From positions 1 to 62,612 of the forward strand of contig JACMKO010000015.1 in assembly GCA_014380065.1 (NCBI GenBank): a DNA stretch of 62,612 nucleotides, given 5' to 3'. Below, piece by piece: positions 18,366-40,964 of this stretch (position 1 is its first letter; each line of letters begins with the position of its first letter). The DNA is from Leptolyngbya sp. ES-bin-22. GTDB taxonomy: Bacteria > Cyanobacteriota > Cyanobacteriia > Leptolyngbyales > Leptolyngbyaceae. Both the position numbers and the translations under genes were made by a program. The notes below the pieces were generated by a model. That model was not told the origin of the DNA. It worked only from the letters and a program-made list of their open reading frames with translations, and ran no database searches.

Positions 18366-19055
18366 CTATATACCATTTTAGCTTAGCTGTTTAAAGGTCG
18401 CGTAAAGGGAGAGGCAACAATTTAAATACTACTATGTGAGTGACATAAGCATCGGTCAGGAAAAGCTTTACAACTGGGCAAGTAGATTCACTGGGATTGT
18501 GTTGGTCGTTCTTAGCTTAGCTGCGTCGTTGGTTGAAGTGTCACTTGCAACCATTCTCAGTAGGATGGGCACCGCCCATTCATTGCCAGAATGCTTATGC
18601 CATCGTGTGTGTGAGTAAGGCTCATCCTACAATTTGTGGTTTATTCATCTGGAAACCGCTGTCACGTCGACTATTGAAGTCGTGCACTCTTTGAGGTCTT
18701 TCCAGCGATCGCCGACCTCTTTCCACTTCTTCTTTATCGGTTTGGCACCTGACAGGAGACTCTATCAGTATGGAGAGCGCTGCATGAGATGAGCGAGCTT
18801 GGGAAAATCTTTATGTTTAGTCCTCATCGTTTCTCTTACTAGTGGCTTTGAGCCTATTAGCGGCTTTGAACCAGTGGTGGTGTGCGATAGGCGGTGAATC
18901 ACGTCGCTTAGAGTAGTTCCACCCTAGAAAATTCACGGGGCGATCGCTGCAATACTAAATATCTTTTGTAAAAACTTACCCTAATGGTCGGTATTGCCAC
19001 TGTATATTTGGGCAAGATAATAACAGCCCTAGATCTTACAGACCTGTATTACTTC

Positions 19056-19832
19056 ATGGAAGCTAAAGTAGCGGACTCAAAAGCCTTGTTAGTTGTTGAT
19101 GAAAAGCCCCTCTCCTTAAGGCAGTGTCTGCGTTACTTGCAGGCAGCGGGTAAACTGCAAGCCTTTGTTGGCGATATTCTGCGGCAATATGTTCTAGAGC
19201 AAGAGCTAGAAACCAGGCAAGATATTGAAATTAGCTCTGCCACCGTTGAACAGTCAGTGATCGATTTTCGGTTGCAGCAGCAGCTTACAGATAGTAAGGT
19301 CTTTCAGGAGTGGCTCAACCGCAATGGCTTGACCTACGAGCAGTTTCACAGCCAAATCGTCGGCAGCTTCAAGCTCGAAAAGCTGAAAACTCAGGTAACG
19401 CACGATCGCCTGCAAGAGCATTTTATTGAGCGCAAGGTGTTTTTCGATCGCGTTGTGCTGTCTCGCATTGTGGTTGCCAGCCAAGAACTGGCAGAAGAAC
19501 TGCACAGCCAGATTACTGAAGGCGCAAATTTTGAGCAGTTGGCACGGGAGTACTCAACGGCTGATGAGCGGGTTGCCAATGGCATGATGGGTCCGGTGAG
19601 CCGAGGCACGTTGCCCGATGCCTTGAGAGCCGCGATCGATTCTGCCAGCCCAGGCGAAATGGTGGGACCGCTCGAATTTGAAAAGTTTTGGGCAATCTTT
19701 CGAGTAGAGCAGTTTTTACCTGCAACCTTAGAAGACAATCAGTTGCAGCAGGCGATGCAAAATGAGTTGTTTGAGCGTTGGCTAGCAGAAAAAATTCAGA
19801 CCATGACCGTTAAGCTACAGGTGAACGAATGA
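19056..19832 (+). CDS. PpiC/parvulin-type peptidylprolyl isomerase (SurA/PrsA-like); start 19056 or 18984
   Basis: VVLSRIVV..QELAEEL..QI.EGANFEQLAREYS, GMMGPVSRGTLP, GEMVGP; overlaps the next gene (ATGA). Confidence 0.9.
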   Translation: MEAKVADSKALLVVDEKPLSLRQCLRYLQAAGKLQAFVGDILRQYVLEQELETRQDIEISSATVEQSVIDFRLQQQLTDSKVFQEWLNRNGLTYEQFHSQIVGSFKLEKLKTQVTHDRLQEHFIERKVFFDRVVLSRIVVASQELAEELHSQITEGANFEQLAREYSTADERVANGMMGPVSRGTLPDALRAAIDSASPGEMVGPLEFEKFWAIFRVEQFLPATLEDNQLQQAMQNELFERWLAEKIQTMTVKLQVNE

Positions 19833-22441: not shown

Positions 22442-22539
22442 GGATCGTGGATTAAATAAAACCGACAAATTGTTCGTAGGTAGGGGCGCACAGCCGTGCG
22501 CCCCTACGGAAAACGCCGAGGTTATTAAATTCTTGTTCC
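22442..22539. mobile_element. 98-bp MITE-like element, copy 1, inserted at the TAA stop codon of the ABC exporter
   Basis: TAA at 22439-22441 and 22540-22542; ends GGATCGTGGATTAAATA / TATTAAATTCTTGTTCC; central hairpin GTAGGGGCGCAC-AGCC-GTGCGCCCCTAC (22480-22507); near-identical inverted copy at 48857-48954. Confidence 0.85.
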
Positions 22540-23065
22540 TAAGTATGAGAAGCAGGGACGCTGACTGACAAAGCTTTCAGAGATCGCCTGCCCCGCCTGC
22601 ACTGAAAGTGCGGACTAACAGGAGCAAGTCCTCTGTAGGCTTTTGAATCACGGGCGGATAAGCAGCCTTTCAGTCGCTTTGCCAGTCAATCAGGTAGGGA
22701 CGTTACCCGTAGCATCCGTATGACAAAATAGATAACGTCCCTATGAAGCAAGAGCAACACAGTTAGAACAGCACCTTTTGTGCCTGTTTTGAACCAACGA
22801 TCGTGTGTCTTTCTTCGATGCAACACCAAGGCACCTTGCCTGTGAGACTGGAGCTTGCGGTGCTTGGACGATCGCGCTGTGGCGATCGTTGCTTTTTACC
22901 GTTTGATTGCAGTCAGCCTAGCTGTTTGAGTCTTCTACGTGAAAACCTCAGCTTTCGGGTGCATCAAATAAAATCTTCGTAAAGATATACGAAAATAATT
23001 GTTCATTTGTTATCAAACGCTGAAGGGTTGGGCAATATAGCAGAGCCATGTAGGTGTAGACAGCA

Positions 23066-26000
23066 ATGCCCGCAGATTCTATCGGTAATACTTTAGCGAC
23101 CGCTAAGCCAATCTTTCCAATCGTTAGTACACAGACGTTAACCGAGTTCATTGGGGTTGACTCTAGCACTCTCGATGCTAATGATTACTACAGCTTCAAA
23201 CTTGCCCGCACTAGCAGCTTTACACTCTCACTTACAGGATTGAGTGCCAACGCAGATGTCCAGGTGCTAGATAGTGCTGGGGCGATCGTAACAGGTACGG
23301 ATGGCTCTGCACTGAGTTCGAGCAACACAGGTACCTTGGCCGAGTCGATCAATAGCATTCTCAATCCAGGGACTTATTACATTCGCGTCCTGCCTGGACC
23401 TGCCACCGATCCGCTGAACCCGCTAACTACAACGCCCAGTACAAACTACAACCTGAACGTTGCGGCAAATAGCAATACCAAGACAGACATCCTCTGGCGA
23501 AACTATGGAACCGGAGAGAATGCCACCTGGGTTGTGGATGGCACTACTCTTGTTTCTAGCGTCTATCTTCAACCTACTACAGACTTAAATTGGAACATTC
23601 AGGCAACTGGAGACTTCAATGGCGACGGTAATACTGACATTGTTTGGCGCAACTACGCGACTGGGCAAAATGCGTTCTGGCTAATGAATGGAACGACGCT
23701 TGTATCACCTTCGTTCTTCCCCACAGTCAGCGATCTTAACTGGCAAATTCAAGGAGCTGGCGACTTCAACAGCGACGGCAGCACCGATCTCGTTTGGCGC
23801 AACTATGCCACTGGGGAGAATGCTGTCTGGTATATCAAAAACCTTACACTCTCCTCCAGCACGTACATAGAACCACTGCTGTCTCTCAATATTCGTATTC
23901 AAGGAGTCGCCGATTTTAATCTTGATGGTAATCCTGATATTCTTTGGCGCGATTATTCATCAACCACTAACAACAACTTCATTTGGTTGATGAATGGCAC
24001 CACAAGAGCTGGTGTAGCCGTCCTGCCGTCTGTTGCTGACTTAAACTGGCGGATACAGGGAACTGTTGACCTAAACGATGACGGTAACTCAGATTTGCTT
24101 TGGCGCAGCTTCGCTACAGGTGAAAATTATGTCTGGTATCTCAAGGGCACAACCTATAGCGCAGCTGCCGCATTACAGACTACAACCGATTTACGCTGGC
24201 GAGCCACTCCGCCCTTCAATCGCTTGCTGCCAGCCGTGCGTGCCGATGCGGCCGGGAATTTGACCACTACTGCCTTCTCGATCGGTCCAATCAACGGTAG
24301 CGGCACATACCGTGATGCAGTTGGCGGTACTGATACGAACGATTACTACCAGTTCTCGCTTGGTAGTGTCACCCAACTCGGTTTGGCGTTAACTGGCTCA
24401 GGGGGTGGTTCACTCAATGGCGATCTGGATTTACGGTTGTACGATGCGTTTGGCGGCGTGGTGGCAAGCTCTACCAACGGTGGCAACGCGATCGAAACGC
24501 TGACGGTTAGCGGCTTGGTTGCAGGAACCTATTACATCCAGGTCGTCGCCAGCTCTGGCAGCAGTGCTTATGAGCTGGGGATTAACGCAAACAATCTGCC
24601 TGTTCTAGTGAGTAATAATGCACTCACCGTGAGTGAAGGTGCTGCGTTAACGATTAGCAACACATTGCTGCGAGTCACAGACGAGAATAATCCGGCTGCT
24701 CAACTGGCATACACGCTGCTGATACCGCCAGATAGCTCTAGAGGAAATCTAAGCTTGAATGGGGCAGCGATCGCCCAGAACAGCATCTTTACCCAGGCTG
24801 ATATCGACGCTGGTAGGCTGAGCTACCGCCAGAACGGGAGTGAAACACTCACTGATAGCTTTGTCTTCAGCGTTTCTGACGGCGTGGGTGGCGCGATCAG
24901 CAATACCACCTTCACCATCAATACGATTCCCGTTAATGATCCACCCACCTTGTCTATCAACGCCGCGTTGACGCTAAGTGAGGGCACTGCCGTTAGCCTT
25001 TCAAGCCTCAATCTGCTGGTGACAGATGTAGAGCAAACGCCAGCGCAGTTGATCTATAGCCTGAACAGTGTGCCAACTAACGGCAGTCTCTTGTTAAATG
25101 GCACGGCGATCGCAGCAAGCAGCACGTTCACGCAAGCCGATATCAGCAGCGGCACCCGGCTGAGCTACAGCCACAACGGGACAGAAACCACAAGCGATAG
25201 CTTTACGTTCACCGTCACTGACGGGGCAGGCGGGACGGTGGCGTTGTCACCGCAAACGTTTAGCCTTGCCGTTACACCTGTCAATGATGCACCTGTACTG
25301 ATTGCCAATCGAGGGTTGACCGTCACAGAAGGGGCTGCCCCCATCATCACGTCGGCGCTGCTGCAAACTAGCGATGCTGAATTTACGGGAGCCGCGATCG
25401 CGCCACAGCTTCCAGACCGAATTATTTACACAGTAGGCACATTGCCCATCAATGGGACGCTCTTCGTTGGCACAAACGCGCTGGCTGCTAATGGAACGTT
25501 TACGCAAGCAGACCTGAACAACAATCGCATTCTCTACAATCACAACGGTAGCAAGACCAACAGCGATAGCTTCGTCTTCCGCACCTCTGACGGTAGTAAT
25601 GTCACCACCGACTCGACCTTCAACATCATTATTTCTCCAGTCAATTCGCCTCCAGTCCTGAGCTTAAATGCAGGTTTAGCGGTTAGCGAAGGTGCAACCG
25701 CGAATATTGGCAGCACGCTACTCCAAGTGACTGATCCAGACAACCCGCCGCCGCAGGTGGGATATACGCTGGGTCAGAGACCACTCAATGGCGACTTGAA
25801 GCTGAATGGTACTGTTCTGACTGCTGGGCAAACCTTTACGCAGCAGGATATCAACACGCTCAATCGCCTGACATATCAGCACAACGGGAGCGAAACCACC
25901 AGCGACAGCTTTAGCTTCACAGCCTCTGATCCCTTTGGGGCAGCCGTGCCAAGCACAACGTTTACGATCGCGGTTACGCCCGTCAACGATGCGCCAACGC

Positions 26001-29000
26001 TTTTGTCCAACGTTGGACTCACGCTTTCAGAGGGCACGGCTGGCAGCATCACCACAACGTTGCTCAACGCGACTGATGTAGACAACCTGGACTCGCAGCT
26101 TACCTACACTGTCTCGACACCCGCTCACGGCAGCTTGCTTTTAGGGACAGCAGCCGTCACCAGTTTCACGCAGGCCGATTTGGCAAGTGGGCAGCTTAAG
26201 TACGTGCATGACGGGAGCGAGTCGATTTCGGATAGTTTTAGCTTCACCCTCAGTGACGGTACTGCAACCATTGCAGCGAGAACCTTTAACGTCTCTGTCA
26301 TTCCGGTCAACGATTTACCTGGACTGTCTAATAATGCAGGGCTGACATTGGCCGAAGGGGCAACGAGCACGATCGCCAGCACGGCGCTCGCCATTACAGA
26401 CAACGATGGTCCGGGTCCTTTGACCTATACGATCGGTGCTGGCACAACTAGAGGCACGCTGAGACTGGGTGCGGCTACACTTGCAGCGGGGCAAACCTTC
26501 ACTCAGTCAGATATCACAGGCAACCGCCTCTCATATACCCATGACGGTTCCGAAACGCTGGCGGATAGCTTTACCTTTACAGCCTCCGATGGCTCTACGG
26601 GAACACTGGCTCTCACGACCTTTAACATCGCCGTTACGCCTGTCAATGACGCACCGATTCTGATTTCCAATGGCGGCATCACCCTGCTGGAAGGTGCTCT
26701 CACAACCATCAGTAGCAGTGTGCTGCAAGTCAGCGATGGCGATAGTCCGCCGTTGACAAGCCTGGTTTATAACGTGACCAGTGCTCCCGCGAACGGTGCT
26801 TTGTTGCTAGGTGGCAGTACCGTCACCAGCTTTACCCAGGCAAATCTGAACAGTGGGCAACTGGTCTATCAGCACAATGGCAATGAATCGCTGTCCGATA
26901 GCTTTACTTTTACGGTGACGGATGGTGTGGTGACAACACCCGTGGGTCCAAGCGTCTTCAATATTGCGGTGACACCCGTCAATGATGCGCCCGGACTTTC
27001 TAACAATGCTGGCTTGACGTTGGCGGAAGGGGCAACGAGCACGATCGCCAGTACCGCACTTGCAATCACCGATAACGATGGTCCCGGTCCTTTAACCTAC
27101 ACGGTGGGCGCTGGCACAACCAGAGGTAGCCTGAGACTCGGCACAGCAACCTTGTTGGCAGGGCAAACCTTTACCCAGGCAGACATTGCAGGCAATCGCC
27201 TTTCCTATACCCACGATGGGACGGAAACGACGGCAGATAGCTTTAGCTTTACTGCTTCCGACAACTCGACGGGCACGATCGCGCTGACCACTTTTAGCAT
27301 TAACGTCACCCCTGTCAATGATGCTCCGGTGCTGACCGTACCGGGCTTCCAGGCAGTGGATGAAGATCTGCCTTTGGCGTTTACAGGCACGAGGCTTGTT
27401 ACCGTCAGCGATGCGGATATCGGTGGAAATCCACTGGTGGTAACGCTTTCGGCATCTGGCGGTACGCTCAGCCTCAACCCTGGCAGCCTGACTGTCAATA
27501 ATAACGGCACCAGCCAGGTCACGCTCACCGGACAGCTAACCTCAGTCAACAATGCGCTGAGTAGCCTGGTCTACAGGGGACTATCGAATTTCAACGGTCC
27601 AGACACGATTAGCATTGGTGTGACTGATCAGGGCAGCACAGGGGCAGGCGGCGTGAGCACTGACACGAAGACGATCGACCTGATTGTCAACCCCATCAAT
27701 GACGCACCGACTTTGACCGTTCCTGGCGCACAAACCGTTCTAGAAGATACGGTGCTATCGCCGGCAACCCTGATTGACACCACCGATGTTGATGCGGGCA
27801 CCAACCCAGTGAGGGTGAACCTGACCGCTACGAATGGTGCGCTGACACTGGGTACAACGGGCGGACTAACCTTTACGGATACCACCACGAATGGCAGCGG
27901 CACGATCGCCCTGACAGGCACGATCGATAGCGTCCGGGCAGCGTTAGCAACCCTTAGCTACCAGGGCAATGCCAACTACTTCGGTGCTGATGCCATCACG
28001 ATTAGGGTGGATGATCAGGGTGCCGTTGGCGCTTCGGGCGCACTCAGCATCCAGAAAACTATTTCGGTGGGTGTCATTCCCGTTAACGATGTGCCGACCT
28101 TTACGGCTGGCACTGATCTCGTTGTGAATGAGGATGCCACACCACAGACCGTAAATTGGGCAACGGGCATTGCTACGGGTCCAGCGAATGAGTCGAGCCA
28201 AACGCTCAACTTCATTACGTCTAATAGCAACGCCAGCTTGTTCACCGCTGCACCCACGATCGACCCCAGCGGCAGACTGACCTATACCCTTGCTCCCAAC
28301 GCCAATGGTACGGCAACCGTAACGGTCAACCTCAGAGACAATGGCGGGACTGCCAATGGTGGTGTCGATACGTCACCCGCCAGCATCTTCACCATTACCG
28401 TGAACTCCGTCAACGATGTGCCGTCGTTTACAAGGGGTGCCAACCAGACCATCAATGAAGATGCAGGTGCACAAACGGTAACAGGCTGGGCAACCGCCAT
28501 TACAGCCGGTCCAGCCGATGAAGCGGCTCAAACCCTGAACTTCCTGGTCAATACCGATAATCCATCCTTGTTCTCAGCCGCGCCCACGATCGACCCTGCA
28601 ACAGGTACTTTGACCTACACAGCCGCGCCCAACGCCAACGGCACGGCGATTGTGACCGTACAGCTTAGAGATAATGGCGGGACTGATTTGGGTGGCGTTG
28701 ATCGCTCCGCACTTCAGACTTTCACCATTAACGTCACTGCGGTTAACGATGCACCCATCTTCACCCTGCCGAATCCGCCGAGCGTGAGTGAAGATACAAC
28801 GCTGGCGATCGCAGGCATTAGTCTTGCCGACGTTGATTCGGGCAGCAGTCCACTCGTGGTCGCGCTCTCTGTGGTTAGCGGCACCCTTCAACTGGGCAAC
28901 ACCGCTGGACTCACCATCACCGCTGGTTCCAACAACAGCAGCAGCGTTGCCTTCAGCGGCAATCTCAACGACATCAACGCGGCATTGTCTGGACTCAGCT

Positions 29001-31279
29001 ACCGTGGCAACCTGAACTTTAACGGGGCTGACACGCTGACACTCACTGCCAATGATCAGGGTGCAACAGGTGCTGGCGCGATCGGCATCGACAGCAGGGT
29101 ACTTGGCATCACGGTCGCGCCTGTCAACGATGCGCCTGTAATCACTATTCCTGGCAGCCAAACGGTAGACGAAGACACCAATCTGCTGCTTTCTGGCATC
29201 AGTGTCACGGATGCCGACTCGAATCCCAACCCGATCACGGTCATCGTGTCGTCAACCAACGGTACGCTAACCCTTGATCCATTGGTTGCAGGCAGCAGCA
29301 CTCTGACGCTGACCAATACGCTGGATGCCATCAATACCGCGATCGCCAACCTCACCTACCGAGGCAATCTCAACTACAACGGTGCCGATACGATCACGAT
29401 CAGGGCGAACGATCAGGGCAATACGGGCTTTGGTGGCTCTCTCACCGATCTCAAGACCATTAGTGTGACGGTCAACGCCGTCAACGATACGCCGACCCTG
29501 GCTGTACCCGGAGCGCAGACGATCAACGAAGACACTAACCTGGTTTTCAACGCAGGTAGAGCCATCATTCTGAGCGATGTAGACTCTGGCGCGAACCCCA
29601 TCCAGGTGAACTTCACCGTCAGCAATGGCACCTTGACGCTGGGTGCAGTTGGCAGCGGCGGCGCACTCACGGGTAATGGCACTGGTGCTGTCACCTACAT
29701 TGGCACATTAGCAGCCCTGACACCCGTCCTTAACACTCTGACCTATCGCGGCAGGCAGGACTATTTCGGTGCCGACACCCTTAATGTGACCGTCAACGAC
29801 CAGGGCAACACGGGTTCTGGTTCACAGGGCATTGTCACTGGCTCTGTCGCCATTACGGTTAGCTCCGTAAACGATGCACCCGTGCTGCTGACAAACCGGG
29901 CGCTGACGTTAAGCGAAGGCACCTCTAGCGTCATCACTAACTCCCAACTTCGCACGACAGACGTGGACAATACACCTGCTCTGCTCGTTTACACCCTGTT
30001 CAGTGCGCCGAATCCTCTCACCAGTGGCAGTCTAAGGCTTTCCAATGGTGGCGGCACAACGGCAACTCTGGCGGCGGGCGGCACCTTCACGCAGGCAGAT
30101 GTCAACAGCGGCTTCCTCTCGTATCTCCAGAACGGCAGTGAGACAACGAGCGATAGCTTTACTTTCAGGGTCTCTGACAACACGCCTGGTAGCATCACGA
30201 TTCCAGGCACGGGCAACGCGACGTTCAATATCGTAATCAACCCGGTGAATGATGCGCCCACGATCGTCAACAACAACAGACTGAACCTGAGCGAAGGGGC
30301 AACAAGCACGATTTCCAGCACCTTACTCAGTGTGAGTGATGCCGACAACACAACGGCTCAACTGAGATACACCCTGAGCAGCGCTCCCAACAGCGGAAAT
30401 GTGCGGTTAAATGGCAGTGCTCTCACCACGGGGCAAACCTTCACGCAAGCCGATATCGAAAGCAATCGCATCTCCTATCGCCACAACGGTAGCGAAACCA
30501 CCAGCGACAGCTTCATCTTTGCGGTGAATGATGGCGCAGGCGGCACCACGGGTAGCAGAACGTTCAATATTGGCATCACCAACACGAACGATGCACCGAC
30601 GATCGTCTCTTCGGGTCCTGCAACTGTAAACGAAGGCGCAACGCTTAACATCACTAACACTCTGCTAAGAACCTCCGATCCTGATAACCTCACCTCAGAG
30701 CTGGTTTACACCCTGCCAACCGTGCCCGTCTCAGGAACCCTCTTCCTGAACGGGACAGCTCTGGCTGCGGGTGCGACCGTGACGCAACAGCAGATCGACC
30801 AGGGCGCACTGACTTACAGACACAACGGCAGTGAGCCAAGTGGGAACGATATCTTCGTCTTACAGGTGTCGGATGGTACAACGACCTTAGGTAGCCGTGT
30901 CTTCAACATCAACGTCAATCCGGTCAACGACCCACCAGTGCTGGTGAGTAACACAGGGTTACTTCTAGCTGGCGATGCGCCCTCGCTGACGGTCATCGGC
31001 AGTGACCTGCTACAGGTCACGGATGTCGATAACACGACCGCTCAGTTGACGTACACCCTTACGTCAGTACCAAACCCAACCGTTGGCATTCTGCGGTTGA
31101 ATGGCACCCAGGTCAACGCTGGGCAATCCTTTACCCAGGCAGATATTGATTCGGGGAACCTCAGCTTCGACTACCTCGGCAACGGCAGCGGCGAAACCTT
31201 CCAGTTCACGGTGTCGGATGGTGGCGTAGGTGGCACGCTCTCCAATGCGTTCTTCTACATCAACTTCAGCTATTCGTAG
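23066..31279 (+). CDS. Giant repetitive surface protein/adhesin: PPC, FG-GAP repeats, second PPC, then ~19 cadherin-like/Ig-like repeats
   Basis: 2737 aa. PPC motifs (DYYSF..LSLTGL..DVQVLD..GTYYIRV); GDFNGDGNTDIVWRN repeats; repeats bounded by PVNDAP, with FTQADI..LSYxHNGSET.SDSF.F.VSDG (CSPG/Cadherin_3-like) and VPGAQTxNED..YRG..NFNG.DTL (cadherin-like). No signal peptide. Confidence 0.93.
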   Translation: MPADSIGNTLATAKPIFPIVSTQTLTEFIGVDSSTLDANDYYSFKLARTSSFTLSLTGLSANADVQVLDSAGAIVTGTDGSALSSSNTGTLAESINSILNPGTYYIRVLPGPATDPLNPLTTTPSTNYNLNVAANSNTKTDILWRNYGTGENATWVVDGTTLVSSVYLQPTTDLNWNIQATGDFNGDGNTDIVWRNYATGQNAFWLMNGTTLVSPSFFPTVSDLNWQIQGAGDFNSDGSTDLVWRNYATGENAVWYIKNLTLSSSTYIEPLLSLNIRIQGVADFNLDGNPDILWRDYSSTTNNNFIWLMNGTTRAGVAVLPSVADLNWRIQGTVDLNDDGNSDLLWRSFATGENYVWYLKGTTYSAAAALQTTTDLRWRATPPFNRLLPAVRADAAGNLTTTAFSIGPINGSGTYRDAVGGTDTNDYYQFSLGSVTQLGLALTGSGGGSLNGDLDLRLYDAFGGVVASSTNGGNAIETLTVSGLVAGTYYIQVVASSGSSAYELGINANNLPVLVSNNALTVSEGAALTISNTLLRVTDENNPAAQLAYTLLIPPDSSRGNLSLNGAAIAQNSIFTQADIDAGRLSYRQNGSETLTDSFVFSVSDGVGGAISNTTFTINTIPVNDPPTLSINAALTLSEGTAVSLSSLNLLVTDVEQTPAQLIYSLNSVPTNGSLLLNGTAIAASSTFTQADISSGTRLSYSHNGTETTSDSFTFTVTDGAGGTVALSPQTFSLAVTPVNDAPVLIANRGLTVTEGAAPIITSALLQTSDAEFTGAAIAPQLPDRIIYTVGTLPINGTLFVGTNALAANGTFTQADLNNNRILYNHNGSKTNSDSFVFRTSDGSNVTTDSTFNIIISPVNSPPVLSLNAGLAVSEGATANIGSTLLQVTDPDNPPPQVGYTLGQRPLNGDLKLNGTVLTAGQTFTQQDINTLNRLTYQHNGSETTSDSFSFTASDPFGAAVPSTTFTIAVTPVNDAPTLLSNVGLTLSEGTAGSITTTLLNATDVDNLDSQLTYTVSTPAHGSLLLGTAAVTSFTQADLASGQLKYVHDGSESISDSFSFTLSDGTATIAARTFNVSVIPVNDLPGLSNNAGLTLAEGATSTIASTALAITDNDGPGPLTYTIGAGTTRGTLRLGAATLAAGQTFTQSDITGNRLSYTHDGSETLADSFTFTASDGSTGTLALTTFNIAVTPVNDAPILISNGGITLLEGALTTISSSVLQVSDGDSPPLTSLVYNVTSAPANGALLLGGSTVTSFTQANLNSGQLVYQHNGNESLSDSFTFTVTDGVVTTPVGPSVFNIAVTPVNDAPGLSNNAGLTLAEGATSTIASTALAITDNDGPGPLTYTVGAGTTRGSLRLGTATLLAGQTFTQADIAGNRLSYTHDGTETTADSFSFTASDNSTGTIALTTFSINVTPVNDAPVLTVPGFQAVDEDLPLAFTGTRLVTVSDADIGGNPLVVTLSASGGTLSLNPGSLTVNNNGTSQVTLTGQLTSVNNALSSLVYRGLSNFNGPDTISIGVTDQGSTGAGGVSTDTKTIDLIVNPINDAPTLTVPGAQTVLEDTVLSPATLIDTTDVDAGTNPVRVNLTATNGALTLGTTGGLTFTDTTTNGSGTIALTGTIDSVRAALATLSYQGNANYFGADAITIRVDDQGAVGASGALSIQKTISVGVIPVNDVPTFTAGTDLVVNEDATPQTVNWATGIATGPANESSQTLNFITSNSNASLFTAAPTIDPSGRLTYTLAPNANGTATVTVNLRDNGGTANGGVDTSPASIFTITVNSVNDVPSFTRGANQTINEDAGAQTVTGWATAITAGPADEAAQTLNFLVNTDNPSLFSAAPTIDPATGTLTYTAAPNANGTAIVTVQLRDNGGTDLGGVDRSALQTFTINVTAVNDAPIFTLPNPPSVSEDTTLAIAGISLADVDSGSSPLVVALSVVSGTLQLGNTAGLTITAGSNNSSSVAFSGNLNDINAALSGLSYRGNLNFNGADTLTLTANDQGATGAGAIGIDSRVLGITVAPVNDAPVITIPGSQTVDEDTNLLLSGISVTDADSNPNPITVIVSSTNGTLTLDPLVAGSSTLTLTNTLDAINTAIANLTYRGNLNYNGADTITIRANDQGNTGFGGSLTDLKTISVTVNAVNDTPTLAVPGAQTINEDTNLVFNAGRAIILSDVDSGANPIQVNFTVSNGTLTLGAVGSGGALTGNGTGAVTYIGTLAALTPVLNTLTYRGRQDYFGADTLNVTVNDQGNTGSGSQGIVTGSVAITVSSVNDAPVLLTNRALTLSEGTSSVITNSQLRTTDVDNTPALLVYTLFSAPNPLTSGSLRLSNGGGTTATLAAGGTFTQADVNSGFLSYLQNGSETTSDSFTFRVSDNTPGSITIPGTGNATFNIVINPVNDAPTIVNNNRLNLSEGATSTISSTLLSVSDADNTTAQLRYTLSSAPNSGNVRLNGSALTTGQTFTQADIESNRISYRHNGSETTSDSFIFAVNDGAGGTTGSRTFNIGITNTNDAPTIVSSGPATVNEGATLNITNTLLRTSDPDNLTSELVYTLPTVPVSGTLFLNGTALAAGATVTQQQIDQGALTYRHNGSEPSGNDIFVLQVSDGTTTLGSRVFNINVNPVNDPPVLVSNTGLLLAGDAPSLTVIGSDLLQVTDVDNTTAQLTYTLTSVPNPTVGILRLNGTQVNAGQSFTQADIDSGNLSFDYLGNGSGETFQFTVSDGGVGGTLSNAFFYINFSYS

Positions 31280-34239: not shown

Positions 34240-35808
34240 TTGGCAGCGTCAACAAGAACCCAAACTCTTCAGCAAATTGTGGTGACGGCTGCTCAAATGC
34301 GGCAGATTGAAGCGCGTCTCTTTGCCGCAGGTATGCCTGTTGAAGCGTTGATGGAGAAGGTCGCCGGGCTAATTGTTCGTCGAGTTGAGGCGCTCTATCC
34401 TAACCACCGCCAGCATTTTGGTGTATTGGTTGGACCTGGGCACAACGGTGGTGATGCGCTGGTTGTAGCCCGTGAACTACACCTTAAAGGCTATCCTGTT
34501 TCGCTTTACTGCCCGTTCTCCAAACTCAAAGATCTGCCTGCCCAGCACAGTCGCTACTGCCAAAGTCTAGGCATTCCCTTTTTGGAACAGGTAGAAGCAC
34601 TACAAAACTGTGACGTTTTGATTGATGGCTTGTTTGGGTTTGGGTTGGAGCGATCGCTCAGCGATGACATCACCACTACAGTTAACCAAATCAACCAGTG
34701 GTCTCAGCCTGTAGTCAGCATTGACCTTCCTTCAGGGCTGCATACCGATACCGGAGCAATTTTAGGAACGGCCGTACGCGCCACTCATACTCTTTGCCTC
34801 GGCTTGTGGAAGCAAGGACTCTTACAAGATCAGGCGCTTGATTATGCAGGCAGCGTTGAATTGATCGATTTTGGTGTGCCTTTAGCAGATGTGTGGGCAG
34901 TATTGGGCACTTCACCACCGATACGACGTGTAACGCCAGAGCAGGCGATCGCCCATTTGCCACTGGTGCGTTCTGCTGCGACCCATAAATACAAAATGGG
35001 ACACGTCTTGCTGATCTGCGGCTCGCGCCGCTACGCGGGCGGCGCGGCGCTTACTGCTCTCGGTGCCCGCGCCAGTGGCGTTGGAATGCTCTCGATCGCG
35101 GCACCCAAAGCCTTGAAAGCAATCCTTACGACACAGTTGCCAGAAGCGCTGGTGTGGGGCTGTACCGAATCAGAAACGGGCGCGATCGCTCAATTGCCTG
35201 ACGAACTTGATCTAAGTGCCTATGATGCGATCGCGTGTGGTCCTGGTTTAACGATGGATGCGAGTGCTGTGGTGCAGCAAGTCTTAAATCAAAAGCAGGC
35301 GATCGTCCTGGATGCTGACGGTTTGAACATTCTTGCCCAGATGGGTACATTTCACACCCTTCAGGCTCGACAAGCGCCAACGGTGCTTACACCACACCTG
35401 GGCGAATTTAAGCGCCTCTTTCCCGATCTGGCAGACCCTATGCCGTGTCGAATCACCGCTGCTCAAGCTGCCGCTGCAACCGCTGGTGCCATTGTGCTGT
35501 TAAAGGGCGCACGGGTTGCGATCGCCAATCCTGAAGGCAGCGTCTGGATCAATCCCGACAGTACCGCCGCTCTTGCCCGTGGCGGTAGTGGTGATGTCCT
35601 AACAGGGCTGCTCGGTGGGCTACTGGCACAAACGATCGCCACACCTTCTTCCACTCGCTCTATTTTTGAAAGCGTTCAGGCAGGGGTTTGGTGGCACGCA
35701 CAGGCAGCCATACTAGCCATGCAGGAGCGCACAATCTTGGGCGTTGATGCCTTTACGCTAGCGCAGTACCTAATTTCAGCGTTGCAGAAGGTGTCGCCTC
35801 AAAAATAA
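34240..35808 (+). CDS. nnr: Bifunctional NAD(P)H-hydrate epimerase/dehydratase
   Basis: LMEKVA, GPGHNGGDA, DGLFGFG, IDLPSG (YjeF_N); THKYKMG, GPGL, LDADGL, LTPHLGEF, LLKG, GGSGDVLTG. Confidence 0.95.
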   Translation: MAASTRTQTLQQIVVTAAQMRQIEARLFAAGMPVEALMEKVAGLIVRRVEALYPNHRQHFGVLVGPGHNGGDALVVARELHLKGYPVSLYCPFSKLKDLPAQHSRYCQSLGIPFLEQVEALQNCDVLIDGLFGFGLERSLSDDITTTVNQINQWSQPVVSIDLPSGLHTDTGAILGTAVRATHTLCLGLWKQGLLQDQALDYAGSVELIDFGVPLADVWAVLGTSPPIRRVTPEQAIAHLPLVRSAATHKYKMGHVLLICGSRRYAGGAALTALGARASGVGMLSIAAPKALKAILTTQLPEALVWGCTESETGAIAQLPDELDLSAYDAIACGPGLTMDASAVVQQVLNQKQAIVLDADGLNILAQMGTFHTLQARQAPTVLTPHLGEFKRLFPDLADPMPCRITAAQAAAATAGAIVLLKGARVAIANPEGSVWINPDSTAALARGGSGDVLTGLLGGLLAQTIATPSSTRSIFESVQAGVWWHAQAAILAMQERTILGVDAFTLAQYLISALQKVSPQK

Positions 35809-36260
35809 GGCGCGATCATGCTCCTTGCACAATTTATGTCAGTTAAATTGCAACCTGTAGTGCAGCGCATTCCTGGTTTCAAATGGTTGTGCTAAGGCAA
35901 CATCCATGACCATTGGTTGTGTTCCTTAAAGACGACAACCTTAAATGAGCTAGAACAGGAGGTGTCGGGTATATTAAGTGCAATTGATGGTCGCTATCAA
36001 TTAGTAGAGTGCTGTCGTAGGAATCTGTTAGGTTAGCTGCCTGTACTCCTAACAGAGCGCTTGCTTGCTTTATAGTTCTACAAAGATGCTTCATCACCAC
36101 TAATAAACTATCTCGCTGCGTTGCTCCGTCAACCACTCATCCCTCTTAAACCATTGCCAACCGCAATGCCAGAAAAGGGCTACAGGTAAGCGCATCTGTA
36201 CCGAGTCAAGTAAAACTGCTTCATTAATCGACCGATCTCTTTACCAGGCAAGCCCCTCCT

Positions 36261-37001
36261 ATGGAAAAACCCTCTAAAATTAGCTTCTCAAACGGTTTGG
36301 TTGCAGAGTTAACTCGGCTTGAAACACCAGCAGATTTGACTTCTGAGCTACATCGACTGGGCTTTGAGGGACGGCAGCCCGCACTTGTGGTCATTGGTGG
36401 TGCCAGCAAGCTGAGCGAAGCAGATTTTCATCGGTTGCAGAAGCTATTTGTCGAGGTGCTAGCGCCTCTAGCGCAAAAATGGCAAGCTGTAGTGATTGAT
36501 GGGGGCACCGACACTGGAGTGATGCGCCTTATGGGGCAGGCTCGGTCAGCCATTAGTGCAAACTTTCCGCTGATTGGGGTAGCGCCATGTGGTCTGGCGA
36601 CGTTGCCGACTGAGATTGCTACGATGCCGGATGCTGCACCGTTAGAGCCGCATCATACTCACTTTATTCTTGTGCCTGGTTCAAACTGGGGCGATGAATC
36701 CGGTTGGATTGCCAAAGTTGCCAGCGCTATTGCCGATTCTGCTTCCGTCACCGTATTAATCAATGGCGGTGAGATTACCTGGAAAGATGCGTCACAAAGT
36801 GTGAAGGCAGACCGCTCGATTATTGTGATTGCTGGTACTGGACGCACTGCCGATATCCTGGCGGCTGCGCTTCAGGGTGACTCTAAAGACGAGCGGGCAG
36901 CGGCGCTAGCTGCTTCTGGCTTGGTACGCGCGATCGATCTAGAAACTGGAGCCGACACCCTTGCCGCAATGATTGAGGACATTTTTGCTGCTAAAAGCTA
37001 A
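36261..37001 (+). CDS. Stand-alone SLOG domain protein of the TRPM-like type (LSDAT_prok)
   Basis: VVIGGA, IDGGTDTGVMRLMG, LIGVAP, LEPHHTHFILV, VLINGG, IVIAGTGRTADILA, collinear with TRPM MHR1/2 motifs. Confidence 0.88.
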   Translation: MEKPSKISFSNGLVAELTRLETPADLTSELHRLGFEGRQPALVVIGGASKLSEADFHRLQKLFVEVLAPLAQKWQAVVIDGGTDTGVMRLMGQARSAISANFPLIGVAPCGLATLPTEIATMPDAAPLEPHHTHFILVPGSNWGDESGWIAKVASAIADSASVTVLINGGEITWKDASQSVKADRSIIVIAGTGRTADILAAALQGDSKDERAAALAASGLVRAIDLETGADTLAAMIEDIFAAKS

Positions 37002-37040
37002 TATGCTTCAAGCCTCGCGATCGTCTTCAGGAATTCAGAC

Positions 37041-38378
37041 ATGCCGGATACTCCATCAAGCTCAGCGTCTTCCAGCCGCAACCAAATGCTCGAAGATGCC
37101 TGGTTTCGCTTTGCAAAGTACGACAAAAATGCGTCCATTGCCCAAAAGCGCTTCATTCGACAACGACGCTGGATTCTGATCTTAGGTGTTGCAGCCACAA
37201 CACTGGGCGTTGCTTATTCTGTCGTTGAGAAAAACTTGGAGTCTCGCCAGTGGGTGTTACCAGAAGGCGTAGCACAAGATAAATTTCTGAGCCTTCTGCA
37301 CGTCCCAGTTCTAGTCGTGCCCATTCTGCTGGGTGTGCTGGTGGCGATTTCAGTCAAATTTAATATGGGCATCAGTTGGGTCATGCTGCGGAGCAGTGCT
37401 GAAGCCATCAAAAAGGAGATCTATCGCTACCGGATGCAGGTTGGGGAGTATGGCCCCGAGAAAAGCACTCCAGCCGAATCACGCGATGTCCATCTGGCAA
37501 GAACTCTGAAGCTAGTCAGCAAGCGGCTGATGGGAACCGCAGTCAACCAAACAGACCTTCTAGCCTATGAAGGGAGTCTTCCACCCAAGTACGGTACGCC
37601 CGATGGTGACAATGGGTTTAGCGACCTGACTGCTGAAGAGTACCTAGTCTTGCGAGTTGAAGACCAGTTTAACTACTACCAGAAAAAAGCCGCTCGGCTG
37701 GGTAAGGATGTGCGTCGCTTCCAACTCATGATCTTTCTCCTTAGCGCGGTGGGAACCTTGTTCGCTGGTCTGGGCTTTGATGTTTGGATCGCAGTCAGTA
37801 GTGCCCTTGCAGCCTCGGTGACAGCCTACCTGGAGTTTAGGCGAGTTGAAATAAATGTCGTTTTGTGCAATATCTCAGCGGCTGATTTGTATGATATTCG
37901 AGTTTGGTGGCACACCCTCTCGCCCGAAGCGAGAACTGAGAAAGGAAGCATCGAAACCCTGGTCATCAGCACAGAAGCCGTTTTGCAAGTAGAAAATGAA
38001 GGCTGGCTGCAAGAAATGCGCGAGGCACTCGCTGAAATCTATGGCGACAAGAAGGACAGAAACGCTCATGACGGCTACAAGCTGTTGGAGGGCGTTGATC
38101 CTGCTCTACAGCCAAGTGCGATCGCGAACCTTCCTACTCAAGACGCTTCTGCCACGCCTCCGTCAAAGGCAACGCTGAAGCCAGAAGCCAAGACCACGCT
38201 TGTCGAACCAACTGCTACGTCAGAACCTGCATCTTCACAGGCGGTTGATAGCGCTGCCGTACACGCTGAACCGACACCCTCTAAATCGACTGCCAACTTT
38301 GTGTCTGACCCTACAAAAGTAGTGGAGCCAGACAGCGCTGGAAACGTTTCAGACCCTACCGCTGAAGCTGTACGCTAG
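37041..38378 (+). CDS. DUF4231/SLATT membrane protein with two tandem 2-TM SLATT units and a disordered C-terminal tail
   Basis: Unit 1: YDKNASIAQKR-TM-TM-WVMLRSSAEAIKKEIYRY. Unit 2: YLVLRVEDQFNYYQKKA-TM-TM-...EAVLQVENEGW. Pro/Thr/Ser/Ala-rich tail. Confidence 0.83.
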   Translation: MPDTPSSSASSSRNQMLEDAWFRFAKYDKNASIAQKRFIRQRRWILILGVAATTLGVAYSVVEKNLESRQWVLPEGVAQDKFLSLLHVPVLVVPILLGVLVAISVKFNMGISWVMLRSSAEAIKKEIYRYRMQVGEYGPEKSTPAESRDVHLARTLKLVSKRLMGTAVNQTDLLAYEGSLPPKYGTPDGDNGFSDLTAEEYLVLRVEDQFNYYQKKAARLGKDVRRFQLMIFLLSAVGTLFAGLGFDVWIAVSSALAASVTAYLEFRRVEINVVLCNISAADLYDIRVWWHTLSPEARTEKGSIETLVISTEAVLQVENEGWLQEMREALAEIYGDKKDRNAHDGYKLLEGVDPALQPSAIANLPTQDASATPPSKATLKPEAKTTLVEPTATSEPASSQAVDSAAVHAEPTPSKSTANFVSDPTKVVEPDSAGNVSDPTAEAVR

Positions 38379-38381
38379 CGG

Positions 38382-40964
38382 TTATGTCTGTAGTTCTAGC
38401 GCTCTAAGCTGGTTTTGAATGCGATCGCGGTCGCTCATTGCCGGTTGAAAATCGGGCTTGATGGCTAGCGCTCGTTCTAGCGACTGCACAGCATCAGCAT
38501 ACTGCCTCAACTCGTAAAGCGATCGACCCCGCCAGTACCAAGCAGTATGGCTATCGGGCTGAATCTGAATGGCTCGCTCAAAGCAAGTAATCGCGTCTTG
38601 GTATCGCTTCAACCCGACAAACGCTCCCCCCAAGCAGCAGCAGATGTCAACATCATCTGGTCTTAATTGAAATGCCTGTTGGTAGGACGAAATGGCTTCC
38701 TCGTGTCGCTCTAACCCATACAGAACATTGCCTCGCCAGCGCCAAAGGTTGGCATCATCCGATCGCAACAACCGTGCCCGGTCATAGACGCTTAACGCTT
38801 CTGCATGACGCTTCTGCTTTTCCAGAGTGCGCCCTTCCTGTAGTAAGCGATCGTAATCATCGCTACTGGACACAGCAGTTGCACCAAGCTCGACGTGTGG
38901 CACCATGATTATGGTCTCCTCATCACGTCTCTCTGTTTTTGGAGCACTGACGATCGTTGCTTCCGGTGTGTCGGTCAGAACAACAGCAGCCATTGCCGTC
39001 AATTTGGGTTTACTGATGACGGTTTCTTCTGGTTGTAGCGATGCTACAGCGGCGATCGGCTCTGGTTCCAGATGAAGGCGACGCTTGTAGTCTTCAAGCA
39101 CTCCTTGAAGATGGTGCGCTTTGAGGTCAATGGCGGAGACTTCAGACTCATCTCTAGACGCAATAGTCGCATCGTCGTCGCCCGACAGCCCTGAGTCACC
39201 AGACTTGAGCTGTTGCATCACTCGCCTGCGCCCCTCCGCCGCCTCTTGAAAATCGGGCTTCAACTGCATCGCTCGATCGTAAGAGGCGATCGCGGCTTCT
39301 TGCTGATGCAGGCTTTCTAGCAGTCGTCCCCGGTCATACCACGCCCAGTAGTTCTCTGGCTGAAGCTGGACGACCTTATAGTATGAAGCAACCGCTTCTT
39401 CATAGCGGCGTAACTTTTCCAGGATGTTGCCCCGCTTGAACCACACAACATGGTCATCGGGCTGAATTTCGACCACTCGGTCATAGGCGAACACGGCTTC
39501 TTCATGGCGGTGCAAATTGTCCAGCGCCATGCCACGCATGAACCACGCCAATACGTCATCAGGATGCAGTGCAATCGCGCGCTCACAGGCTGACAACGCC
39601 TCATCGTAATGCTGAAGGTGATAGAGGGTGTCAACCCGCCGCAATTGGCTCAAAAGCTGCTTTCGGCTTTCGAGCGCCAGTTGAAAGTCGGGCTTTAGCT
39701 GTACCGCTCGATCATAAGAGGCAATGGCTGCATCAGGCTGCTGTAAATGTTCGAGCACTTGCCCTCGATCGTGCCATGCCCAGTAATTTTCTGGCTGGAG
39801 TTGCACGACACGCTCAAAGGATGCAAATGCTTCCTGATACTGCTGTAGCTGCACAAAAACGGAGCCGTGTTTGTACCACGCCAAATAATCATCCGGGTGG
39901 AGCTGTACCACGCGTTCGTACGACGCAGCGGCATCCTCGAAACGCTTCAGATTTTCCAGCGCCAGCCCTCGCTTAAACCACGCTACGTCATCGTCAGGCT
40001 TTGCTTGAATCACTCGATCGTAGGCAACAACGGCTTCCTTGTAGCGCTGACGTTGGAATAAATCATCACCCCGCTCTAACCAGGCAAGATGCCCATCGAA
40101 ACTGATGATGGTCGGTTCGGCAAGTACAGAGGCAACGGTTGCAGTCCGTGTGAGCGATCGCAGTGCCTCAAGCGCTTCTGTCGCAGACTCATAGCGCTGG
40201 CGAAAGTCGTAGCGCACCATTGTGTCGAGAATGTTGGCAAAGTCTGGACTGACCTGCACCTGATCGCGCCAGATAATTTCGCTGGTCTTTGGATCTTCCC
40301 TCAGCTTTTTGGGATAAATACCTGTCAAGCACTGAATGCCCATCATGCCAACCGCGTAGACATCACTGCTAAAGCGCGGTTTGCCTGCCAACTGCTCATT
40401 TGGCATGTAGCCAGAAGAGCCGACCGCGATCGTGATACTGGCTTCATGCGGATCGAGTACCTGTGCCCCAATTTGTTTGACCGCTCCAAAATCGATCAAA
40501 AACAGACGTTGATCGCTCTTTTGCCGGATTAAGTTGGAAGGCTTAATGTCGCGATGCACCACCTGCTGCTGATGCACAAACTCCAGGACAGCCAAAAGAT
40601 CCTGTAGCAAGTGAATGACATCCATTTCACTGAATTGAGGTTGGAGCTTGAGTGCTTGGCTCAGCACCTGCCCTTCAATAAACTCCTGCACTAGGTAGAA
40701 GTCTTGCGCTTCCTCAAAGTGAGCGAACAGCCTAGGAATTTGCTCATGACTACCCAGCGCGTACAGCACTTCTGCTTCCGTATCAAATAGTCGCCCTGCC
40801 GCTTGCAGCGCTTCCGGGTCGCTCATTCTAGGCTTGAGCTGCTTGACAACGCATTGGGGCTTGCCAGGGAGATGTAAATCACTAGCCAAATACGTCTGTC
40901 CAAACCCGCCGCCACCTAAGTGACTGATAATCTGGTAACGTCCCCCAAGGATTCTGCCCAGCAT
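38382..40964 (-). CDS. Hanks-type Ser/Thr protein kinase with multiple TPR repeats
   Basis: LGGGGFGQTY, VVKQL, HRDIKPSN, DFGAVK, GYMPNEQ; many AW..RG..L..L.RYEEA.ASY.RA.Q..PD repeats in two blocks. Confidence 0.95.
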   Translation of the reverse strand: MLGRILGGRYQIISHLGGGGFGQTYLASDLHLPGKPQCVVKQLKPRMSDPEALQAAGRLFDTEAEVLYALGSHEQIPRLFAHFEEAQDFYLVQEFIEGQVLSQALKLQPQFSEMDVIHLLQDLLAVLEFVHQQQVVHRDIKPSNLIRQKSDQRLFLIDFGAVKQIGAQVLDPHEASITIAVGSSGYMPNEQLAGKPRFSSDVYAVGMMGIQCLTGIYPKKLREDPKTSEIIWRDQVQVSPDFANILDTMVRYDFRQRYESATEALEALRSLTRTATVASVLAEPTIISFDGHLAWLERGDDLFQRQRYKEAVVAYDRVIQAKPDDDVAWFKRGLALENLKRFEDAAASYERVVQLHPDDYLAWYKHGSVFVQLQQYQEAFASFERVVQLQPENYWAWHDRGQVLEHLQQPDAAIASYDRAVQLKPDFQLALESRKQLLSQLRRVDTLYHLQHYDEALSACERAIALHPDDVLAWFMRGMALDNLHRHEEAVFAYDRVVEIQPDDHVVWFKRGNILEKLRRYEEAVASYYKVVQLQPENYWAWYDRGRLLESLHQQEAAIASYDRAMQLKPDFQEAAEGRRRVMQQLKSGDSGLSGDDDATIASRDESEVSAIDLKAHHLQGVLEDYKRRLHLEPEPIAAVASLQPEETVISKPKLTAMAAVVLTDTPEATIVSAPKTERRDEETIIMVPHVELGATAVSSSDDYDRLLQEGRTLEKQKRHAEALSVYDRARLLRSDDANLWRWRGNVLYGLERHEEAISSYQQAFQLRPDDVDICCCLGGAFVGLKRYQDAITCFERAIQIQPDSHTAWYWRGRSLYELRQYADAVQSLERALAIKPDFQPAMSDRDRIQNQLRALELQT

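Follow-up and report, generated by a model that had tools for sequence, protein, structure and literature searches.

We analysed two adjacent genes in a 62,612-nucleotide stretch of DNA from Leptolyngbya sp. ES-bin-22 (GenBank assembly GCA_014380065.1, contig JACMKO010000015.1, positions 1 to 62,612), referred to below as the window. Gene A encodes a protein of the LSDAT family (SLOG in TRPM, prokaryote) and gene B a predicted membrane protein with two SLATT units; they lie on the same strand, exactly 39 bp apart, as an earlier reading of the sequence (the original prediction) had described them. We argue that the two likely act together, and that a specific subfamily of TIR-WD40 proteins encoded elsewhere in the genome is a candidate source of the signal that they would receive. 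The features of the pair are as follows.

Gene A: 36261..37001, + strand, 246 aa; stand-alone LSDAT, predicted ADP-ribose-type nucleotide sensor.
Gene B: 37041..38378, + strand, 445 aa; double-SLATT protein with four predicted membrane helices and long cytoplasmic helices, predicted membrane effector.
SLATT unit 1 of B: 37116..37466, + strand; DUF4231/SLATT_3-like, residues 26-142, hydrophobic segments at 44-62 and 85-103.
SLATT unit 2 of B: 37641..38006, + strand; SLATT_1, residues 201-322, short hydrophobic hairpin at 230-262.
C-terminal tail of B: 38043..38375, + strand; about residues 335-445, low-complexity, variable and probably disordered, judging from the lengths and tails of homologues.

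A TRPM-type SLOG protein and its membrane neighbour

Protein A covers positions 2-193 of the 195 in the Pfam LSDAT_prok profile (PF18171; E 1.1e-71, 240.7 bits against a cut-off of 25.4) and also matches LSDAT_euk (E 2.7e-14). Its best solved relatives by sequence are TRPM2 structures (E 2.4e-10 with the single sequence, 1.1e-19 with a profile). The AlphaFold2 model of A has a predicted local distance difference test score (pLDDT) of 94, and in Foldseek TRPM chains make up 49 of the 50 matches listed (E 7e-16 to 6e-12, TMq 0.66-0.80; best TRPM2 match E 7e-16), the remaining one being a ciliary-tip protein. In a wide VIA search, A aligned with TRPM2 (8sr7_A) over 241 residues at Z 23.1 and a root-mean-square deviation (rmsd) of 2.9, and with other TRPM2 structures at Z 22.8 (7aov) and 18.4 (human 6puo); TM1055 (Z 17.2), LOG enzymes (Z 13.7; related fold, 12-18% identity) and the SLOG domain of ThsA (Z 13.1) ranked lower. 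The identification of A as a SLOG protein like the MHR1/2 region of TRPM channels is thus borne out, and the five motifs first quoted for it are present, starting at residues 79, 104, 128, 167 and 191. The closest named relatives are Stenomitos, Leptolyngbya and Lyngbya records (74-84% identity), which makes a filamentous cyanobacterial host most likely. The top structural match (Z 24.1) is chain 6A of PDB 9nw3, a Tetrahymena ciliary-tip central-pair protein of similar size (346 aa), which is a eukaryotic LSDAT apparently without a channel domain.

According to the available text of two studies, Y295 of human TRPM2 clamps ADP-ribose (ADPR), R358 contacts the phosphates and R302 the adenosine ribose (PMC6759353), and binding by the isolated domain is weakened by M215A, Y295A and R358A (PMC13060097). 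In a profile alignment to 8e6t, which maps the pocket by sequence and not by superposition with ligand, M88, W143 and R195 of A correspond to M215, Y295 and R358 of human TRPM2, and I150 to R302; A keeps two of four ADP-ribose residues plus a Tyr-to-Trp swap. Among 80 homologues of A, M88 is found in 78 and W143 and R195 in all 80. Because these residues are kept, A likely has a nucleotide pocket, in line with the ADP-ribose-type pocket proposed at the outset, though perhaps not one for linear ADPR. D176 is Asp in 77 and Glu in 3 of the same homologues and may sit at the Glu of the PGGxGTxxE motif of LOG enzymes.

Profile searches likewise agree with the two tandem SLATT units read in B: Pfam gives DUF4231 at residues 26-142 (E 7e-11) and SLATT_1 at 201-322 (E 1e-20), with SLATT_3 below cut-off, and NCBIfam SLATT_1 matches over two stretches (E 2.5e-27). 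Hydropathy marks segments at 44-62, 85-103, 230-248 and 244-262, the second pair being short and weaker (KD19 1.9 and 1.5). The AlphaFold2 model of residues 1-345 is all helical (pLDDT 83, below 50 at 336-345); the cytoplasmic helices are long and conserved, with many invariant Arg, Lys, Tyr and Trp residues, and the tail differs in length among relatives. No solved relative of B was found by profile (best E 0.14) or by Foldseek at E<=0.001. The best VIA matches (Z 10.3) were generic helical hairpins such as ESCRT-III and were set aside as below the meaningful level for helical bundles. There is no Ion_trans match, and profile, Foldseek and VIA searches detected no relation of B to the six-helix TRP channel domain. 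For this reason the description of the locus as a "split TRPM" holds only as an analogy: A is a TRPM-type SLOG protein, but the label is overstated for B. That B forms a membrane pore is predicted from the SLATT family to which it belongs.

The pairing of LSDAT with SLATT is long predicted. Work by Burroughs et al. in 2015 is said to describe LSDAT-SLATT fusions and operons, and the modules predicted there have the same domains in the same pairing as A and B. The names of the Pfam families (PF18171, PF18181, PF18184, PF14015) themselves state the SLOG-SLATT association. In their available text, PMC13143021 credits LSDAT to Burroughs et al. 2015, a bioRxiv preprint (10.1101/2023.05.26.542521) also cites that LSDAT/SLATT work, and two further papers describe SLATT as a predicted nucleotide-regulated pore (PMC9503650, PMC7159879). 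The pair cannot therefore be called an uncharacterised system, as it was originally, and on its own amounts to ordinary prediction-level knowledge. We found no experimental study of bacterial LSDAT or of TIR-WD40 proteins in the literature searched, which covers few subscription papers; the terms searched for do not occur in PMC6459960, and the available text of a choanoflagellate preprint holds nothing on bacterial LSDAT.

Association of LSDAT with SLATT and TIR genes

Among 301 genomes of the class, LSDAT was found above the cut-off in 82. Loci were defined as about 6 kb on each side of all 95 LSDAT matches outside this genome, which gave 93 loci, 92 of them with a called LSDAT open reading frame (ORF); the ORF caller missed the LSDAT of L065, which is left out of the locus counts. 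Of the 92 loci, 47 have a SLATT gene no more than 600 bp from LSDAT and 48 have one anywhere in the locus; the SLATT-adjoining LSDATs span 30 of 49 genera. The two domains are fused in 13 of 16 longer homologues of A, in 5 of 60 matches of B and in 58 of 79 metagenome loci, the last being a biased sample in which the query itself was fused. DUF4231 occurs in 64 of the 301 genomes, 59 of which also have LSDAT, and some SLATT occurs in 68 of the 82 LSDAT genomes. The link between sensor and membrane partner that had been proposed from the one locus is upheld by these adjacent and fused forms.

Both ORFs are intact (identity across congeners 74-84% for A and 77-80% for the core of B). In 4 of 4 runs, from two studies, RNA libraries of close relatives yielded contigs over parts of both genes, which is weak evidence as the contigs may derive from DNA; none of the 32 RNA-library pieces listed (of 47) bridges the A-B gap, and contigs cannot show strand or level. 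A complex prediction of A with residues 1-345 of B scored 0.00 in two runs in which the controls also failed to fold, and is no evidence either way. From the adjacent and fused forms, A and B likely act together.

Several variants of the pair were seen. A second, stand-alone DUF4231 gene of this genome (G000:C46:6711-7694; L180:1112-2095, - strand) is 66% identical to the DUF4231 gene 3 bp after the nnr-linked LSDAT in L084, and is a possible second effector in trans. In L071:5918-7826 and L130:5885-7866, LSDAT overlaps a gene for a patatin phospholipase beside a triple-TIR WD40 gene, and SLATT is absent; the patatin may represent an alternative effector. DUF4231 is fused or next to GH19, C39 peptidase and peptidoglycan-binding domains in L080:6318-7838, L137:1620-3935, L141:6866-8398 and L178:5204-7733, possibly a holin-plus-lysin-like output beside LSDAT and TIR-WD40 genes. 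LSDAT is also fused to, or lies directly before, TPR-S proteins, one with a cyclase domain (P0191, L061:6709-8730), a tie to another predicted nucleotide-signalling family. P0195, a 1456-aa protein with two LSDAT and two SLATT_1 stretches, is labelled as from the green alga Cymbomonas tetramitiformis and may reflect transfer or contamination. Second LSDAT copies in the congeners G133, G205 and G213 (L100, L124, L138) form a separate clade with neither SLATT nor TIR nearby; a nitrilase-like gene is among the members of the conserved gene cluster around them. Broken forms include a frameshifted or interrupted fused LSDAT-double-SLATT gene (L175:5902-7726, in G322) and a split LSDAT (L144:5884-6623, in G162).

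Apart from SLATT, LSDAT most often has TIR_2 proteins as neighbours; most of these carry WD40 repeats, some contain two to four TIRs and one has CHASE2. A local profile, made from 21 TIR domains of these loci that Pfam confirms, finds a TIR gene within 6 kb of LSDAT in 31 of the 92 loci, which come from 9 of 15 families and 20 of 49 genera; 22 of these loci also carry SLATT, and 9 have LSDAT beside TIR without it. The background, from 189 TIR_2 matches in 20 hand-picked genomes, is 1.5 per Mb, or about 2% per 12.6-kb window. Relatives such as L108 and L135 have more than one TIR gene nearby, and TIRs occur in 17 of the 79 metagenome loci, which are mostly short. One of these, L189, encodes a 608-aa fused LSDAT-double-SLATT protein (40% identical to B) followed 286 bp on by a 922-aa TIR-WD40 protein. 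Nearly all aligned TIR domains retain a Glu at the catalytic position, which we take to be the catalytic residue. Of 34 LSDAT-linked TIR proteins longer than 300 aa, 27 have a hydrophobic segment, mostly a single one that follows the TIR region, and on this hydropathy the linked TIR-helix-WD40 proteins are predicted to be single-pass and receptor-like.

This genome, which is 94.5% complete, holds one LSDAT match and one SLATT_1 match. It has eight TIR_2 matches, none of them on the contig of A and B, and, as originally noted, scans of the window's 47 ORFs of at least 100 aa (7 at E<=0.01, 40 at E<=1e-10) revealed neither a TIR nor a CD-NTase or sirtuin. On contig C427 lies a 920-aa protein (G000:C427:7342-10104) with TIR at residues 21-139, a hydrophobic segment at 226-244 and WD40 repeats. 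Its best match among the neighbours of LSDAT is a TIR-WD40 protein encoded 263 bp from LSDAT in G180 (50.5% identical over 936 aa), and the TIR-WD40 protein of L189 belongs to the same subfamily, the TIR regions aligning closely. We searched the same 301 genomes with its first 209 conserved residues at E<=1e-45; the counts that follow are among the matches listed. This C427-type TIR occurs in 57 genomes, all 57 with LSDAT, and 0 of the 219 LSDAT-negative genomes match. Within the family, 14 genomes have both, 2 LSDAT only, 0 TIR only and 14 neither. As a control we used another TIR of this genome (G000:C353:6156-10298), whose subfamily occurs in 63 genomes, 44 with LSDAT and 19 without; the nominal Fisher p for the comparison, 1e-6, is overstated because kin are not independent. 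The control gene is followed by a MoxR-like ATPase and a vWA-like gene (translations inspected) and resembles ternary conflict systems of multicellular bacteria.

Congeners with A and B have at least 6 to 11 C427-type matches, which are not copy numbers, beside a single LSDAT-double-SLATT pair, and the C427-type TIR sits at a syntenic site after a galE-like gene in this genome, G348 and G349. We therefore propose the C427-type TIR-WD40 subfamily, from its pattern of occurrence, as the specific candidate signal generator for A and B, which gives substance to the earlier suggestion that the ligand may be supplied in trans. The dispersed TIR-WD40 partner is the new part of this work; the A-B pairing alone is a known prediction.

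Genomic context and known systems

The pair occupies a slot between two core genes.

nnrDE: 34240..35808, + strand; NAD(P)H-hydrate repair enzyme, core gene bordering the slot upstream.
Spacer: 35809..36260, no strand; 452 bp, AT-richer, GC 0.45.
Ser/Thr kinase-TPR core gene: 38382..40964, - strand; convergent, ending 3 bp past B, bordering the slot downstream.

The spacer contains one + strand sigma-70-like site (36049-36076), not above chance, and promoter and terminator counts are likewise at chance level (3 versus 1.7+-1.4 and 3 versus 3.2+-1.7). No convincing repeats that would mark mobility were found at the locus. Elsewhere the window carries housekeeping genes (cysteine synthase, citrate synthase, ndh genes, NAD kinase, a tRNA synthetase), and at 18984-31279 it encodes in a row a peptidyl-prolyl isomerase, an ABC exporter and an FG-GAP/cadherin-like repeat protein of 2737 aa, the last likely a type I-secreted giant adhesin. 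The downstream kinase was considered as a PD-T4-6/MADS defence gene and rejected, having only generic kinase matches and being kept in 5 of 5 congeners whatever the slot contains, including those without A and B.

B was found in 13 of 90 genomes of the family and 6 of 12 of the genus. In G245, G350 and G354 only about 170-280 bp separate the nnr and kinase matches; searches of these genomes found other TIRs, and neither A, B nor the C427-type TIR. The slot of G348 holds a Nudix gene and a Macro-domain protein in addition to A and B, and that of G349, without A or B, a Nudix gene alongside a protein that matches Macro weakly and has two hydrophobic helices, so the slot has repeatedly hosted ADP-ribose-related genes. 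The two helices of the G349 Macro protein (L168:4400-6074) are N-terminal, a type II Thoeris-like layout, and the G348 Macro protein (L169:5864-7697) has a TIR/DrHyd-like N-terminus; both are beside the Nudix gene. An nnr gene lies less than 500 bp upstream of LSDAT in 15 of the 92 other loci, from two families. The nnr-linked LSDATs fall mostly in one clade (SH-aLRT 83, quick tree), which includes the cis-TIR loci L102 and L127; this points to an old locus that, in the lineage studied here, lost the linkage to its TIR.

LSDAT loci are not defence islands. The association with such islands that the original prediction had proposed to look for came out negative: PADLOC models matched neither A nor B, and at E<=1e-30 they matched only 10 of 277 neighbour representatives, mostly housekeeping look-alikes (a desaturase, two cysteine desulfurases, HerA, a patatin, a kinase, two TnpB/Cas12f pieces, a RecQ-like helicase and PDC-S17), with no CD-NTase model among the matches. 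The scan covered 277 of the 338 representatives of neighbours within 6 kb at LSDAT loci, with WD40/TPR, GAF/kinase and ABC clusters and dispersed TIR loci set aside. LSDAT was not found in 50,697 phage records, none of 79 pattern matches in IMG/VR contigs was confirmed, and 4 of 72,556 plasmid records match. The core-gene context, the lack of defence islands and the absence from these phage records thus weigh against anti-phage defence; the patchiness, the swaps of slot cargo and the alternative patatin effector beside LSDAT and TIR (L071, L130) still look like conflict genes.

The nearest experimentally examined system is type VII Thoeris, described in the available text of a recent preprint as a ThsB TIR with a ThsH SLATT protein and canonical cyclic ADP-ribose (cADPR), encoded in TIR-containing two-gene operons that were found through defence-island enrichment, with no SLOG gene named, and reported in Cyanobacteriota among other phyla (bioRxiv 10.64898/2025.12.03.692087). 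LSDAT, TRPM, WD40 and DUF4231 have 0 occurrences in its main text; its supplements, with 29 putative types, could hold LSDAT configurations. Both systems would combine TIR with a SLATT membrane effector. Here, however, the TRPM-type SLOG protein is separate, the TIRs belong to long WD40 proteins whose genes often lie in other parts of the genome, the loci do not form defence islands, and no TIR lies on the contig of A and B, though 22 of the 92 related loci have SLATT and TIR within 6 kb.

Type I Thoeris (ThsA SIR2-SLOG, 3'cADPR) has, as predicted for A, a SLOG-fold sensor of the TIR product, and A aligns with the SLOG domain of BcThsA (7uxs) at Z 13.1 (rmsd 3.1, 163 aligned, 12% identity). 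The available text of bioRxiv 10.1101/2021.01.06.425286 notes the SLOG-TRPM2 homology of ThsA and that several TIRs can serve one type I effector. A differs in lacking SIR2 (it is a 246-aa single domain, and no SIR2 fusion was found among its 16 longer homologues), in belonging to another SLOG family and in having a membrane protein as output. Type II Thoeris couples a nucleotide sensor to membrane helices, a layout shared with the G349 slot gene, but with Macro instead of SLOG. Type III is described as having multiple TIRs with a SLOG protein (bioRxiv 10.64898/2025.12.03.692087), and the window has no TIR genes in cis. CBASS with a SLATT effector differs in that the window's ORFs include no CD-NTase/SMODS. 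TRPM2 MHR1/2 is the closest solved channel fold to A, with M, W and R at the M215, Y295 and R358 positions, but the R302 position is not kept, A ends after the SLOG domain without a TRP channel domain or NUDT9-H, and B is unrelated to the TRP pore by the searches made. The A-B locus thus appears to work like Thoeris yet falls outside types I, III and VII on the features examined.

A proposed dispersed TIR circuit and its alternatives

We propose that A and B are the receiving end of a dispersed Thoeris-like circuit in which TIR proteins would pass an ADP-ribose-type signal through LSDAT to a SLATT pore, a reading that in our judgement could equally well prove right or wrong. TIR-helix-WD40 proteins encoded elsewhere (one on C427 here, about 10 matches at most in congeners) would be activated by a trigger, upon which their TIR domains, in which the catalytic-position Glu is retained, would split NAD+, yielding ADP-ribose or one of its cyclic isomers. 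A would take up this signal in its U-shaped pocket, the fold and residues of which are seen in the model and alignments. Liganded A would then switch B to an oligomeric ion-conducting state, and the cell would be depolarised, arrested or killed; this step is drawn from type VII Thoeris and the SLATT predictions, and many other bacteria have A and B as a single fused protein. Of all the steps the trigger is the least secure; our best guess is that one cell of a filament is infected or has its envelope damaged, and a non-immune cue may also serve.

A number of observations weigh against this circuit. SLATT was not detected in 14 of the 82 LSDAT genomes, and 35 of the 92 loci have neither SLATT nor TIR nearby. 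No TIR lies beside A and B in genera g1 and g11 or in the window. At E<=1e-45, 25 of the 82 LSDAT genomes lack a C427-type TIR, 19 of them also lacking an adjacent TIR, and G349 keeps two C427-type TIRs without LSDAT, an exception to strict co-occurrence. Related genomes are not independent in the co-occurrence counts, and lifestyle or genome size explains part of the overlap because the control TIR, too, shows enrichment with LSDAT (44 of 63). The empty slots represent one loss event, since G245, G350 and G354 form one clade on the nnr tree, and the GC content of A (0.526) and B (0.519) fits the host (nnr 0.542). The position of TRPM2 R302 is I, L or M in all 80 homologues of A. Finally, the SLATT protein of type VII Thoeris is proposed to take the signal itself, without SLOG.

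This last point leads to an alternative that we consider unlikely, in which B, like ThsH, binds the TIR signal directly and A acts as a buffer, threshold-setter or converter of the nucleotide. According to the available text of the preprint, type VII Thoeris works with TIR and SLATT alone, using cADPR, and ThsH was modelled with positively charged cytoplasmic pockets (bioRxiv 10.64898/2025.12.03.692087). The many invariant Arg, Lys, Tyr and Trp residues in the cytoplasmic helices of B would suit such binding, SLOG-fold LOG enzymes are hydrolases (Z 13.7 with A), and the nine loci with LSDAT and TIR but without SLATT point the same way. However, the frequent in-frame LSDAT-SLATT fusion suits direct gating, LSDAT pairs with patatin beside TIR-WD40 in L071 and L130 as a swappable sensor would, and the closest fold to A is the non-enzymatic TRPM sensor, well above LOG.

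The pair may instead signal without killing, with TIR receptors reporting an outside or envelope cue and a graded ion flux through A-B steering filament behaviour or development, much as ADP-ribose gates TRPM2; we find this quite improbable. The core-genome position next to nnrDE in two families, the lack of defence islands and the WD40 or CHASE2 sensor domains that TIR partners carry beyond the hydrophobic helix would fit, as would, weakly, the RNA-library contigs over both genes, if they are not DNA. Against it stand the patchy distribution of B and the swaps of slot cargo, which are typical of conflict genes, the likely wall-lytic GH19 and C39 domains fused to some DUF4231 relatives, and the defensive role of the SLATT systems in the available text of published work, type VII Thoeris and DRT10.

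Very unlikely, in our view, is a TIR-independent role in which A senses ADP-ribose or damaged NAD(P)H from redox stress alongside the neighbouring NnrDE. The gene for the latter lies directly upstream here and in the 15 other nnr-linked loci, only 3 of which have TIR within 6 kb, Nudix and Macro genes are present in the slot of G348 and G349, and 19 of the 82 LSDAT genomes show no linked TIR. However, the nnr linkage is limited to 2 of 15 families, mostly one clade, and may stem from a single old insertion site; genomes that lost A and B still have nnr, and the 57 to 0 co-occurrence and the cis TIR genes would go unexplained. That A and B are an idle or decaying remnant of a three-gene operon that lost its TIR, as the nnr-LSDAT-double-SLATT loci with TIR 1.3-4.5 kb away (L074, L102, L127) and the broken copies in G162, L175 and G323 might suggest, is scarcely credible given intact ORFs with 74-84% (A) and 77-80% (B core) identity across congeners, invariant pocket residues and a matching TIR kept at the syntenic site after the galE-like gene in G000, G348 and G349.

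The circuit from dispersed TIR proteins to A and B can be extended to a wider reading, which we put forward tentatively and would sooner bet against than for: several mostly filamentous cyanobacterial lineages may run a genome-wide network in the style of Toll-like receptors, in which variable single-pass TIR receptors converge on what is usually one LSDAT-SLATT pore. Each receptor would place a WD40 or CHASE2 sensor outside, followed by a membrane helix and a cytoplasmic TIR NADase, with one to about 10 per genome and a diffusible ADP-ribose-type signal. With its parts dispersed among core genes, such a Thoeris type would have escaped searches that mine defence islands.

Bacterial LSDAT is the family closest to the ADP-ribose sensor of TRPM2, and it now has a specific candidate signal generator. 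With that candidate named, a three-gene reconstitution could reveal both the ligand of LSDAT and the gating of SLATT. If the proposed circuit is true, it would establish a trans-acting form of bacterial TIR signalling, from many receptors to one pore, with predicted membrane-spanning TIR receptors. It would also bear on the origin of TRPM gating, and would offer a living bacterial model of the TRPM ligand domain first gating a membrane pore.

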